Part shown: in pieces, positions 28,975 to 32,838 of the stretch
Position numbering within the stretch: position 1 is the first letter of the stretch
Layout of the letters: each line of letters opens with the position of its first letter
Assembly (NCBI GenBank): GCA_965262725.1
Contig: OZ253555.1
Span: 3,392,001-3,456,000, forward strand
Reading direction: 5' to 3'
Length of the DNA: 64,000 bases
From: Dehalococcoidia bacterium
GTDB taxonomy: Bacteria > Chloroflexota > Dehalococcoidia > UBA2979
Program-made: the position numbers and the translations under genes
The notes under the pieces: generated by a model
Database searches by the model: none
The model's input: only the letters and a program-made list of their open reading frames with translations
Told to the model about the DNA's origin: nothing

Positions 28975-29305
28975 CGGCACGGGGCTATCGCGCGTGACGG
29001 TGCGCCGCTACGTCGAGGCGGCGGAGGCGGCCGGCCTCACACCGGGCGGTCCCGAGCCGAGTGAGGAGCAGCTCGCCGCGCTGGCGACGTTGAGCCTCTC
29101 CGGCCCGCGGCCGGCCGAGGCGCCGAGCGAGGAGCTGCTCTCGCCCTGGGCGGAGCGGATCGAGCGCTGGCTCACGGCCGACCGCCTGCAGCTGACGCGC
29201 ATCCAGGAGCTCCTCGCCGGGCGAGGCTGCGAGGTTTCCTACACCACGCTGCGGCGCTTCATCCGGCGACGCGGCTGGCGTCACCGGCAGCCGGTGACCG
29301 TGCGC
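28975..29305 (+). pseudogene. IS21-family IstA N-terminal fragment
   Basis: GLSRVTVRRYVEAA..RLQLTRIQELL..VSYTTLRRF..TVR. Confidence 0.75.
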
Positions 29306-29728
29306 GCCCTCGCCTCCGCCGTGCAGGTGCGTGCCCGCGCCCAGCAGCAGCTGGTCTGGAATCGCACCCGCGAGAGCAACCGACTGCGCAGCGCGCTGCT
29401 GCAGTACTTCCCGGCCGCTCTTCAGGCCTTCCCCGACCTCGCGCACGCGGATGCGCTCTCGGTGCTCGCCGTCGCACCGGAGCCGCTCGCAGCGGCGAAG
29501 CTGACGCGGGCGCAGCTCCGCGCGGCGCTCAGGCGCGGGGGCCGCAAGCGCAACCTGGACACGCGGACGGAGGAGATCCACGAGAAGCTCCGCCTCCGGA
29601 CGCTCCACGTCGCGCCCGCCCTCAGTCAGGCGTTCGCCGACAGCGTGCTCGTCCAGGTCGGGCAGCTCCAGGAGATCAACCGGCAGCTCGAGGGACTGGA
29701 GTCGAAGCTGGCCGCGTCTACCGACTAA

Positions 29729-31168
29729 CTACACCGTCGCCAAACCTGTGGTCGGCGGTCCGGGAGCTCCGGTTCCATCCGCTTCGTGGCCTCCGAGCGG
29801 CACCAGCTGGTAGCCGAGCTTCCTGGCCCTGCGTCTCGCGTTGCGGAGGGCTCTCTCGTGGTGCTGCGCCTCGTAGTACTCGGCTCCGGCGTCCGTGTAC
29901 CCGTGTCCGTACTTCAGGCTCGAGTAGATGATCCTCGCCAGCTTGTGAGCCGTCGCAGTGATGGCCTTGGCTGGCCCCAGCTGCGCCTTCTTCCTCCGCA
30001 GGAACGCCCCCAGGGCGCTGTTGGAGCGGTGAAGACCGAAGGCGGCAAGACGCAGGGCCGCTGCTGCCCGGTTCGCCGACGGCGTGGTCCGGGAGCTGAT
30101 GACCTTGCCTCCGGTGACGCGGTTGTTCGGGCTCAGGCCCAACCACGATGCGAAGTGCTTCGGGGTTTCCCAGCGGCTCATGTCCACCCCGACCTCGCTG
30201 ACGACCTTCAGCGCCGTATGGGCGTCCACGCCATCGATGCGCGTCAGGTCCACCCCCGTCATCCGGTAGAGATGGCTCCGCACGTCGAACGCCGGCGCAT
30301 TCTTGGCGCGCTTCGACCGCTTGGGCTTCCCGAGAGGCGGCCGGGGGTCGCCGGAATCGTCCCACTCCTCCAGTAGCGCCTCGAGCTTCCCGTCGCACTC
30401 GGCGATCTTGCCCTGGTACACCCGGTAGAGATCCCGGGCCTGCGCCAGTTCGAAGAGGTGCTCCTCCCGCCAGTGCCCCTCCAGTGACCGGGCGATCATC
30501 GACGTGTCCGCCCGGATCCTCGGGTCACGCAGCTGCGCCAGCTTCACGGGGTCACGCTCGCCACCAATGACGGCATCAATGATGGCCAGTCCCGTCGCGC
30601 CGGTGATGTCGCTGATGACGTGCTGGAGCTTGACGTTCATCTGGGTCAGGGCCTTCTGCATGTGCTGAACGTGTCTGGCCGCGTCCTCGACCAGCAGGGC
30701 TCGCTGCCGCATGTAGCTGCGCAGTCGGCGGATATCCTCATCGGGACGGAAGGCTCCGGAGAGCAGCCCGTAGGTGTGAAGCTGCTGGATCCACTGGCTG
30801 TCCAGCACATCCGTCTTGCGGCCGGGCGCATTCTTGATGCCCCTCGGGTTCACCAGCAGCACCTCGAATCCCCGCTCCTCCAGCACTCCGAAGAGCGGGA
30901 TCCAGTACACCCCCGTCGACTCCAGCGCCACGGTCTCGATGCCGCACTCGGCCAACCAGTCCGCCAGGCGGTACAGGTCGCCCGTGAAAGCTGCGAACTC
31001 CCGCACCGGCGTATCGGAACGGTCCTCGGGGACTGCCACGAAGTGGCTCTCGGCGCCCACATCGATCCCGGCCGCGTTCAGGTTCACCCGGGACAGCGCC
31101 GCGGGCAGTACCGGCGGATCGCCCCGCGTTCCGTCGGCGCGCCGGGCACTCTCGCCTCGTGTCTCCAT
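29729..31168 (-). CDS. IS110-family DEDD recombinase
   Basis: AGIDVG, ALESTGVYW, GRKTDVLDSQW, FASWLGLSP..TGG, KAITATAHKLAR. Confidence 0.95.
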   Translation of the reverse strand: METRGESARRADGTRGDPPVLPAALSRVNLNAAGIDVGAESHFVAVPEDRSDTPVREFAAFTGDLYRLADWLAECGIETVALESTGVYWIPLFGVLEERGFEVLLVNPRGIKNAPGRKTDVLDSQWIQQLHTYGLLSGAFRPDEDIRRLRSYMRQRALLVEDAARHVQHMQKALTQMNVKLQHVISDITGATGLAIIDAVIGGERDPVKLAQLRDPRIRADTSMIARSLEGHWREEHLFELAQARDLYRVYQGKIAECDGKLEALLEEWDDSGDPRPPLGKPKRSKRAKNAPAFDVRSHLYRMTGVDLTRIDGVDAHTALKVVSEVGVDMSRWETPKHFASWLGLSPNNRVTGGKVISSRTTPSANRAAAALRLAAFGLHRSNSALGAFLRRKKAQLGPAKAITATAHKLARIIYSSLKYGHGYTDAGAEYYEAQHHERALRNARRRARKLGYQLVPLGGHEADGTGAPGPPTTGLATV

Positions 31169-31174
31169 CCTCTC

Positions 31175-31360
31175 GCCCCCTCCCCCACAGCGTGGGCGTG
31201 TGACCGGAGGGAGCCACGACCAGACCGACACTCTACCGAACGGGATCGCCCCGACGGGACGTCACCAGTGATGCAGTCGCAGGGCTCCCGGACCATGCTT
31301 TTGAACGGGCAGATCGCACCAACGATGTACCGGCCTCGGCCCGGTCATCACGCCTCGCCG
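31175..31360 (-). ncRNA. Predicted IS110 bridge RNA
   Basis: Upstream non-coding region with four segments matching target and donor junctions; TATAGT -10-like box at 31363-31368. Confidence 0.7.
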
Positions 31361-32189
31361 CGACTATACATCGCCGCTCGGCCCACCCCAGTTAGTGGCT
31401 TGCTGCACCGCCCGGCCGCCGGGGGTGGGGTGCTTTTGAGGAGCACCCGGACGCCGCGATTTACCTGTCGATGCCGGGCCTGGGGCCCGTGCTCGGCGCC
31501 CGGGTGCTGGGCGAGTTCGGGGATGAACCCGAACGCTTCGTGTCCGCGAAGTCCCGCAGGAACTACGCGGGCACGTCGCCGCTCACCATATCATCGGGGC
31601 GGAAGCGGGCGGTCACCGCGCGCCACGTGCGGAACCGGCGCCTCTACGACGCGGTACACCTGTGGGCGTTCTGCTCGCTCCAGGCGAGTCCCGGGTGTCG
31701 GGCGTACTACCAGCAGCGGCGGGCGCTGGGCGACGGGCACAACCAGGCGCTGCGCGCCCTCGCCAACCGCCTGGTCGCGTTCCTGCACGGCTGCCTGAGC
31801 ACGCGTCGGCTCTACGACGAGCAGGCGGCCTGGGGCGGCCTGAAGACTGAGCCTGCCGAGCTCGCCGCCTGACGGAGGTCGTTGAGCGCCTCGGCGGGCC
31901 CGGACTCATCCAGGGTCTGGAGCTCGTTGAGGGCGCAACATGGCGCGACGAGTACCTGCGCACCCCGCATCACGGGCGACCGGCAGCGGTCGGCCAGCCA
32001 CCGCATGTCCGCGAAGCCGACACGCATCTCACGCCGGCCAGGACCATCCTCTCCGGCGGCGTCGACCTCGGAACACCGCCGCGATCACGACTCTAGCACG
32101 GCGCTCCGGCCGCTCACGATCTCCTTCGCCTCGCGCACCCGACGCCCCGATCCGCTGCCCGGGTGGGGGCGCCCCTTGCGCGTTACGGA

Positions 32190-32400
32190 CATGGGGTGTC
32201 TTCCTCGCCCAGGCGCTCGGCTACTCAGCCGTCCGCTCCGGACGCACCGTCCGCTTCGCCCCGGCCGACCACTACTTCCGCGAGATGGCGCAGGCCCGCG
32301 TCGACCACTCGGCCGAGAAGGTCTTCCGAAGCTTCCTCGCCCCCGACCTGCTCATCCTCGACGACCTCGGGCTCCACCGGCTCAGCGCGCAGCAGTCGAG
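32190..32400 (+). pseudogene. IS21 IstB ATPase fragment
   Basis: FLAQALG..PDLLILDDLGL Walker B. Confidence 0.78.
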
Positions 32401-32838
32401 CGTGTCTCCCGCGCCGCCGGTAGATTCCATGCAGTCCTGCGCTCCGCATTAGCCGTGCCACCCGCTTGCGACCGCAACGGACGCCCTGCCCGAGCCGCAG
32501 TTCGGCGTGCACCCACGGCGCTCCGTAGCTGCCTCGCGACATGGCGTGGATCTCCACGATCTGCTCGCTCAGCGCCTGGTCGGCGACGGCGCGGGCCGAG
32601 GGCGCCCGCTCTTCCCACTCGTAGTAGCCCGCTGTCGAGACCGCGAGTACCCGGCAGGCCACCGCCACGACGACCCCGTCGGCGGCAAGCTCACGGACCA
32701 GCCGGTATCTCATTTTGGGAGCACGTTCTCGCGCGCGAAGAGGGCGGCGGCGCGCTTCAGAATCTCGTTCTCCATCTCCAGGGTGCGGTTGGCCCGGCGC
32801 AGCCGCACCAGCTCCGCCCGCTCGTCGCTCGTCATCTC
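32401..32838 (-). pseudogene. IS3-family fragment (OrfA end + OrfB start)
   Basis: ELVRLRRANRTLEMENEILKRAAALFA; CRVLAVSTAGYY..SRGSYGAP..GRKRVARLMR. Confidence 0.85.

Follow-up and report, generated by a model that had tools for sequence, protein, structure and literature searches.

The window analysed here is a 64,000-nucleotide stretch of the genome of a Dehalococcoidia bacterium (GenBank assembly GCA_965262725.1, contig OZ253555.1, positions 3,392,001 to 3,456,000). Its minus strand carries, at window positions 29720-31434, a 1715-bp insertion sequence (IS) of the IS110 family. This element is very probably an active or recently active RNA-guided IS, with a 479-aa DEDD recombinase, a guide RNA encoded in its left end and crossover at an AG dinucleotide. 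Judged from sequence comparison, the layout of the predicted RNA is not that of an IS621-type bridge RNA: the order of the guides, the core dinucleotide, the nesting of the donor module and an additional covarying dinucleotide all differ, and one of the four guides was not found.

The element was bounded by comparing its copies with empty sites in the same genome. A search of the 3.67-Mb genome with positions 29650-31500 retrieved four copies of the 1715-bp unit (99.7-100% identity), of which one is in the window, another at 125 kb and two lie head to tail at 3476-3480 kb. The inserts differ among themselves at 6 positions. In two empty sites the flanks are joined with a 2-nt overlap. This overlap is the core, CT on the plus strand and AG on the element strand, which is single in the empty sites and present on both sides of the insert when the site is occupied; in the window it stands at 31433-31434 (left junction) and 29718-29719 (right junction). 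The two units of the tandem dimer (G000:C1:3476388-3479817, outside the window) are identical and share a single CT between them. The genome thus holds a ready-made donor junction, in which the right end (RE), AG and the left end (LE) are joined as RE-AG-LE.

On the element strand, the LE (31169-31432) is a non-coding region of 264 nt. Its first two nucleotides, CA (31432-31431), are positions +1 and +2 of the right donor half (RD). The RE (29720-29728) comprises the 9 nt TTAGTCGGT between the stop codon and the AG core, and the left donor half-site consists of its last 5 nt. The left target flank (LT, 31435-31439) reads TCAAA and lies within the transposase gene of an outer IS110-family IS, while the right target flank (RT, 29712-29717) reads ACGCGG, or ACGGGG at one occupied site. 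We observed no terminal inverted repeats and no duplication beyond the single CT, and insertion was at the same site at three loci, as expected for the IS110 family; a long non-coding end upstream of the gene and a short downstream end are likewise the arrangement of the IS110 group. An original prediction, made from the letters of the window, had described an IS110-family element that is intact, has its guide RNA upstream and ends, on the right, only 9 nt past the stop codon. The four copies and two empty sites bear out the ends that it implied, including the short right end, and support this overall description.

The target is the codon boundary ...KLAAS|(F/L)EEHPD... in the 408-aa IS110-family transposase of the outer IS, which is about 1.82 kb long. 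In the window the outer IS (29304-29719 and 31433-32209) is interrupted by the element and truncated on the left, 416 bp of its left part being aligned. Three occupied outer copies, one of which holds the dimer, carry the insert at the same site, CTCCTCAAA-AG-ACG. All three occupied sites read TCAAA-AG and both empty sites read TCAAG-AG, which creates a mismatch to the predicted guide beside the core. On the plus strand, the intact empty copies (G000:C1 at about 1914.5-1916.4 kb and at 678.3-680.1 kb) have C for T right after CT, which looks like an escape allele. Dozens of flank positions distinguish the occupied outer copies from one another, against six in the inserts. This suggests separate insertion events, with gene conversion as a partial alternative.

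The recombinase gene occupies 29729-31168 on the minus strand and encodes 479 residues followed by a stop codon. Searches of Pfam and NCBIfam returned PF01548 (E 3.1e-22, over residues 54-198 of a longer 500-aa open reading frame), PF02371 (E 6.1e-12) and NF033542, 'IS110 family RNA-guided transposase', at 255.5 bits for a cut-off of 140. The 479-aa frame is open in all four copies, which differ by 2-3 residues. IS621 (8wt6, chain 8wt6_A) was the only solved relative retrieved by phmmer (E 5.8e-6). Residues D36, E83, D120 and D123 align with its motifs GID, E-TG and KTD--D, and they are conserved in 76/76, 80/80, 79/80 and 80/80 relatives, respectively. T352, in the motif NNRVTGGK, aligns with the IS621 nucleophile S241 (residue 243 of the chain is S241 by our own count) in a weak domain alignment (i-Evalue 0.67). 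The corresponding residue is threonine in 51 and serine in 29 of 80 relatives. By our count from 31168, codon 352 lies at 30113-30115.

The original prediction had read four guide segments in the LE from short matches, and these strings were all found exactly where it had placed them. In top-strand letters, CTTTTGA stands at 31298-31304 and at 31433-31439, and CTACCGA at 31233-31239 and at 29718-29724; AGTCGC at 31275-31280 matches GCGTCT at 29714-29719 at five of six positions, and AGCCAC at 31212-31217 is paired with GTGGCT at 31395-31400. On the element strand the first two segments read UCAAAAG (31298-31304), identical to LT plus the AG core, and UCGGUAG (31233-31239), identical to the last 5 nt of the RE plus the core. 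TCAAAAG occurs only twice in the window, counting both strands (1.08 expected), both times in the element, and 25 times in the genome, three of these sites being the element's own left junctions. TCGGTAG occurs five times in the window, where 4.97 are expected, and its recurrence within the 264-nt end is about a 1-in-100 event. Taken in one locus alone, the 7-mer matches are only suggestive as guides. As a single locus cannot settle guide identity, we collected relatives: 80 loci from species genomes, mostly metagenome-assembled genomes of Dehalococcoidia (70-90% identity) with other phyla at 53-63%, and a further 80 loci from metagenomes (53-63% identity). Merging gave 167 distinct rows aligned to a covariance model described below. 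Of the sides that could be examined, ends were located for 94 of 148 on the left and 97 of 112 on the right.

The 7-mer at the position of UCAAAAG found its cognate 105-160 nt upstream in 36 of 53 loci, compared with 10 of 2688 non-cognate pairings. For the 7-mer at the position of UCGGUAG, 40 of 45 loci had the cognate no more than 70 nt from the stop codon, compared with 4 of 1848 non-cognate pairings. For the predicted left target guide (LTG) and left donor guide (LDG), this orthologue test is decisive. Some of the cognate misses are due to one mismatch: in a 10-copy family (G001), the guide UAUUCAG meets TA(G/C)TC-AG at nine sites and TATTC-AG at one. Altogether, 84 distinct LTG 7-mers are carried by one scaffold. 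The close relatives L009 and L010, whose recombinases are 90% and 86-87% identical to that of the window, have the same donor guide but differ in the target guide, which in each case corresponds to the relative's own flank. Of the 167 rows, 163 have AG at the end of both guides and three have AA at both, a coordinated change; AA at the end of both guides was seen, for example, in the metagenome relatives L171 and L208. The matches in orthologues and the AG in 163 of 167 rows identify UCAAAAG and UCGGUAG as the probable LTG and LDG, and AG as the core of the clade. As in IS621-type RNAs, both carry the top-strand sequence of the left half-site plus core. The evidence for these two guides and for the AG core is strong, and all three had been named in the original prediction; they are sustained by guide-flank covariation over the 167 rows and, for the core, by the empty sites as well. 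In one relative (L078) the target-guide 7-mer recurs four times upstream (-387, -297, -206 and -115), with a spacing of about 91 nt, so that its target seems to lie within a tandem repeat.

The upstream regions of the relatives share one fixed scaffold. Its 5' half is made of (G/A)CCG, a variable 8-nt block usually ending in C-A, the hairpin UUGGUGC...GCCCG, UU, 4-5 variable nucleotides followed by AG, two nucleotides and UGG. The 3' half comprises a variable helix strand, a linker ending in GCAUCA, a second and longer hairpin UUGGUGAC...GAUCCCG, UU and again 4-5 variable nucleotides followed by AG, and it terminates with A(G/U)UG, about 13 variable nucleotides and a strand complementary to the earlier one of the helix. 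From the raw MAFFT alignment, covariation by column yielded short fragments only; a structure built by hand and a covariance model (R1, from 55 sequences) were used instead. R1 locates the core of the predicted guide (bridge/seek) RNA at 31200-31338 on the minus strand, with 119.3 bits and as its sole match in the window. Of the 80 metagenome loci, none of which was among its 55 sequences, 77 had a full-length match to R1 upstream of the gene, and two more matches were cut by contig ends. On the MAFFT alignment, 88.1% of the cells of the hand-built structure were paired, compared with 77.1% after shuffling and 44-61% in slid controls, and 18 of 23 pairs had double changes. On the independent metagenome loci, 91.0% of the cells were paired, against 69.6% after shuffling, with double changes at 20 of 23 pairs. 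These data argue for a structured RNA encoded in the left end, some 140-190 nt long, which, like IS621-type RNAs, lies in the non-coding end and shows compensatory changes.

In the window, hairpin Hb (GGUGC-GAUCU-GCCC, 31307-31320) separates the candidate right target guide from the LTG; 96-98% of its cells are paired and three of its four pairs changed on both sides. Downstream of the LTG, P5' (GG..GGGAGCC, 31283-31294) is the 5' strand of a long-range helix P, all seven pairs of which changed on both sides, and P3' (GGCUCCC U CC, 31206-31215) is its 3' strand. Between them lie the linker CUGCGACUGCAUCAC (31268-31282), hairpin Hb2 (31242-31266; 91-93% of cells paired, 8-9 of 10 pairs changed on both sides) and the LDG. 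Both guides are unpaired, and each immediately follows, on the 3' side, a hairpin and a G-UU linker. Several other helices were discarded: UGGUGC:GCAUCA, whose pairing is confined to close relatives and which directly repeats a motif present in the two halves; a 5' hairpin sequestering the variable block, which forms here and not in L009 or L010; GGCCG:CGGCU; and the long-range pairs of the single-sequence fold, which are unsupported in relatives. A search of Rfam over 29000-32500 with E up to 1 returned no bridge-RNA family, only a sub-threshold match to Ms_AS-4 and a spurious match to a long non-coding RNA. Ms_AS-4 is an Actinobacteria small RNA; its match (31470-31551, minus strand; 46.9 bits for a gathering score of 50, E 2.5e-5) runs antisense to the part of the outer IS that codes for Tnp_20.

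The two bases directly 3' of the LTG, CA at 31296-31297, are identical to the first two nucleotides of the element. This identity was found in 103 of 105 rows for RD+1 and in 97 of 105 for RD+2 (mutual information 0.64 and 1.31, respectively), and it spans nine different dinucleotides. The bases after the LTG were not used for locating the ends. The LTG and CA together match the junction of LT, core and RD over 9 nt. Such a match could lend stability to the bottom-strand product; alternatively, it could stabilise the left junction when this serves as the substrate for excision or for the insertion of another copy. On the donor side no such handshake was seen: the two bases after the donor guide agreed with RT in 38/131 and 33/131 rows, as expected by chance. 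The fourth base after the LDG is complementary to the first base of the element (RD+1) in 85 of 105 loci.

To locate the right target guide (RTG), we used the 131 rows with a known right flank and scanned offsets for complementarity over +1 to +5, relative to permutations. The signal peaked at the variable 8-nt block before the first UUGGUG (0.524, 0.380 in permutations, z 8.5), in the register that sets the base 3 nt before UUGGUG opposite RT+1; the next register reached z 4.5. At least three contiguous pairs from +1 were formed in 41 of 131 rows, compared with a mean of 7.3 and a maximum of 16 in 500 permutations. The seventh base of the block is a nearly invariant C, which would face the core G, and the eighth is A in 118 of 131 rows and is unable to pair with the core A. 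In the 10-copy family the right flanks are TCAAC (5, including a second partial copy), TCATG (4), TCGAG (1) and GCCCA (1); its block UUGAC predicts TCAA or TCAT flanks over +1 to +3 or +4, which supports this assignment. In the window the candidate block is GUACAUCG (31323-31330), with C31324 opposite the core G and U31325 opposite RT+1. The putative target guide for the top strand is thus 5' of the one for the bottom strand, which is the IS1111-type order, here in an upstream RNA. An RTG as in IS621, 3' of the LTG in the same internal loop and pairing with both core bases, was not found in these rows.

The original prediction had instead proposed the IS621-type model, with two internal loops and the guides in the order LTG, RTG, LDG and right donor guide (RDG), the RTG being GCGACU (31280-31275) and the RDG GUGGCU (31217-31212). 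GCGACU would pair with AG-ACGC at five of six positions and would discriminate against 12 unoccupied TCAAAAG-ATTG sites of the genome, which would explain the preference for the outer IS, and in the 10-copy family the equivalent segment CGGCU fits AG-TC given one wobble pair. We nevertheless consider this model very improbable, as the relatives contradict it on both guides. GCGACU belongs to the linker between P5' and Hb2, and its complementarity to the right flank (0.414) hardly exceeded that of permutations (0.396, z 1.6, n = 131). With an AG core in 163 of 167 rows, the segment would be expected to end in the complement CT, yet it does so in only 23 of 131; in the two closest relatives it has changed (CGGCU, CGAGU) without tracking the flanks. 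The match at five of six positions stands in GC-rich sequence and does not recur in relatives, while the right target block that does covary is 5' of the LTG. GUGGCU overlaps P3', where all seven pairs are compensatory, so that it is buried in a stem, an outcome that the prediction itself had named as speaking against its guides; its proposed partner at 31395-31400 is 33-38 nt inside the left end, away from the donor junction. Of the predicted target TCAAA-AG-WCGC, the TCAAA-AG half holds, and the empty sites differ from it at the base beside the core. The WCGC half is unfounded because the right-flank signal maps to 31330-31323, which pairs here with the core G and +1 only.

Two further explanations concern the guides as such and the number of insertions. 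If the 7-mers were protein-binding repeats at the DNA level, or chance matches, the protein would choose the target. Neither an RNA nor an RNA-protein complex was observed in this analysis, and TCGGTAG is not rare in the window. This explanation is hardly credible: one of the 7-mers corresponds to sequence beyond the element and exists in 84 distinct versions that follow the insertion site, the guide segment lies within a structure with many compensatory changes, and IS110 is a family for which RNA guidance has been shown (Durrant 2024, PMC11208160; Siddiquee 2024, PMC11187229). Alternatively, a single insertion may have spread among the copies of the outer IS by homologous recombination or gene conversion, in which case site specificity would be overstated. 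All copies are at the same position of the same repeat, and the copy at 125 kb has two right-flank alleles (+157, +175) in common with the 3476-kb copy, the rest of its flank being of another lineage. However, its nearest lineage-diagnostic positions (-26, -34 and +220) are of its own lineage, it lacks the private alleles of the 3476-kb copy at +104, +107 and +120, and the window and 3476-kb copies have many private flank differences. Site-specific insertion is moreover the rule in relatives. We regard such a spread as unlikely, and it would affect the number of events only and not the mechanism.

RNA-guided insertion thus remains our preferred reading, and the RNA would be organised as follows. 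From 5' to 3', the variable 8-nt block ending in C-A would be followed by Hb, G-UU, the LTG (UCAAA+AG), CA and P5', then by the linker, Hb2, G-UU, the LDG (UCGGU+AG), about 17 nt and P3'. The two guides of 5+2 nt, which have the top-strand sequence of the left half of the target and of the right end of the element, would pair with the bottom strands as in IS621, and both end in AG, the putative common crossover dinucleotide. The block before Hb is, in relatives, complementary to the top strand right of the core and would pair there. By analogy with IS621 and the seekRNA work, the RNA would bind the recombinase and bridge the circular RE-AG-LE donor and the target, and strand exchange would take place at AG.

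Several observations weigh against this reading. The block GUACAUCG pairs with the real right flank ACGCGG of the window element only at the core G and at +1; among the relatives, 56 of 131 natural right flanks are unpaired at +1 in the standard register, and some loci fit only by a 1-nt shift or a bulge. No RDG was found with exact complements of the core plus RD, with mutual information, with offset scans (best z 3.5) or by modelling on the target module, which would point to GCAUC-A ahead of the second UUGGUG. None of these gave a consistent candidate, the sole hint being the pairing of the fourth base after the LDG with RD+1. About 12 genomic sites (GT-TCAAAAG-ATTGTCC) fit the left guide better than the outer-IS site, yet they are empty, and the preference for the outer IS over these repeats is not explained. 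The repeat, AATCGGGT-TCAAAAG-ATTGTCCACCAC (11 sites listed, about 12 estimated; for example C1:337235 and C1:3505518, both on the plus strand), matches the left guide together with the two U's that precede it, that is, AATCGGGT-TCAAAAG-ATTGTCC over 9 nt, and was never occupied. The residue aligned with the IS621 nucleophile is threonine and not serine, in the weak part of the alignment mentioned above. The single-sequence fold of 31160-31440 was no better than that of shuffled sequences (z -1.24), and a simple scan of 29650-31500 returned no consensus sigma-70 promoter. Gene conversion between outer IS copies may account for one of the loci. Finally, binding of the RNA and recombination are proposed by analogy, the basis of the reading being sequence comparison.

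The element resembles the IS621, ISEc21 and IS622 bridge RNA (seekRNA) systems in its recombinase, with DEDD and Tnp_20 domains, and in the long upstream non-coding end that would encode a structured RNA. In common with the IS621 group, its 5+2-nt guides carry the top-strand left halves of target and donor including the common 2-nt core, duplication of the target is limited to that core, and natural retargeting occurs on a fixed scaffold. In IS621, a stem and a C-G-U-type linker precede each guide, C47-U49 being the bases before the LTG in the portions of Hiraizumi 2024 available to us; the equivalent here is CCCG-UU. The core of IS621 is CT, and its T is described in the same portions as nearly invariant in IS621 and related orthologues, whereas it is AG in the present element and in 163 of 167 rows. 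The putative top-strand target guide is 5' of that for the bottom strand and a capped hairpin separates the two, which amounts to a circular permutation of the target-binding loop of IS621. Unlike the second, separate stem-loop of IS621, the donor module is nested here, the strand after the target guide pairing with the strand after the donor guide in helix P. The base opposite the first core base in the candidate RTG is A and not U (118 of 131 rows), and no RDG was recognised. In IS621, as far as described in the available text, the handshake guides, which read the top strand, follow the RTG and RDG on the 3' side; here the two nucleotides that copy RD+1 and RD+2 follow the LTG. The protein, with 479 aa and a Thr aligned to S241, has only remote similarity (E 5.8e-6) to IS621, and the proteins of the compared systems have 326-328 aa.

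With the IS1111 group the element shares the order of the target guides. The accessible portions of Siddiquee 2024 (PMC11187229) describe IS1111-type seekRNAs (ISEc11, ISPa11, ISKpn4) in which the complement of the top strand comes first and the match to the bottom strand follows, and the reverse order in the IS110-type ISEc21. According to the same source, IS1111 elements have their non-coding region and RNA downstream of the gene and possess subterminal inverted repeats of 7-17 bp. In contrast, the RNA proposed here is upstream of the gene and the right end is only 9 nt long. Repeated insertion into one conserved repeated sequence is also known from ISPpu10, ISPpu9 and other repeat-targeting IS110 elements, as far as the sources at hand describe them, but the repeated target is in our case the coding sequence of an IS110-family transposase and not a REP or an intergenic repeat. 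An AG core, an upstream RNA with this order of guides and an RD dinucleotide after the LTG are not described in the available portions of PMC11208160, PMC11208158, PMC11187229, 10.1101/2025.05.14.653916, 10.1101/2024.06.21.599552, PMC13626964 and 10.64898/2026.08.31.748434; the orthologue and covariation tables of Durrant et al. may already cover the clade.

We regard it as possible, though somewhat short of probable, that the clade uses a distinct design of bridge RNA, with a permuted target module, a nested donor module, an AG crossover whose G alone is read on the top strand, a bottom-strand handshake of two bases and, in many members, a Thr nucleophile. The proposed handshake would match the first two bases of the element in advance and may stabilise the LT-core-RD product, or the left junction in excision and tandem insertion. 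If true, the clade would constitute a family of recombinases that are orthogonal and naturally reprogrammable and whose core is not CT. Recombinases guided by bridge or seek RNAs are under development as programmable tools for genome rearrangement, and the characterised IS621 and IS622 work best at CT or GT cores. A well-populated natural clade with an AG core, another guide order, an extra covarying dinucleotide and often a Thr at the nucleophile position would widen the design space and the sites that can be addressed, and would allow comparisons that tell which features of the IS621 mechanism apply generally. At this locus, one RNA-guided IS would have disabled another at a fixed codon, with a single-base 'escape' allele in the copies that are still intact. 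The clade occurs in Dehalococcoidia sponge symbionts and, at 52-63% identity, in many other phyla and on plasmids.

Transcription of the left end was considered from sequence conservation and from public sequencing runs. A candidate extended -10 box, TGTATAGT (31363-31370, minus strand), is suggested by the conservation of TGTAnnnT in Dehalococcoidia relatives. Eighteen runs, drawn from several studies, contain at least half of the element's sampled words. In two metatranscriptome libraries of one study, contigs cover parts of the gene and 31182-31343, and one 195-nt contig from an RNA library aligned over 31183-31311 with three differences. The runs were available as contigs, which carry neither RNA ends nor strand, and DNA can occur in such libraries; the contigs over the guide region are weakly compatible with a transcript. 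Stretches that the RNA libraries leave uncovered, such as 31344-31424 and 31101-31181, were given no weight. A contig of run X4 joins 29716 to 31432 (side 33, 90% likeness) and resembles an empty site of the TCAAA allele with C for A at RT+1; it may stem from another strain or repeat and is only a lead. In run X1, 29719 is joined to 31436 with a C between them, which matches an empty site of the C allele.

Among the relatives, many target guides are identical to the right end of a related element, and in three rows to the donor guide of the same element; such self-targeting relatives are flanked by a further copy of the element itself. In two other genomes there are arrays whose copies adjoin or overlap by 2 nt. 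Loci of these kinds, with self- or relative-targeting or with arrays, are L133, L151, L188, G004:C1:385672-388633 and G002:C1:465634-470650. Retargeting onto their own or each other's ends would explain the tandem IS arrays of these symbiont genomes. The 3.67-Mb genome is itself crowded with repeat families that have dozens of copies each at 81-95% identity, and the outer IS lies inside another repeated element at several loci, as in the flanks at 1912-1918 kb.

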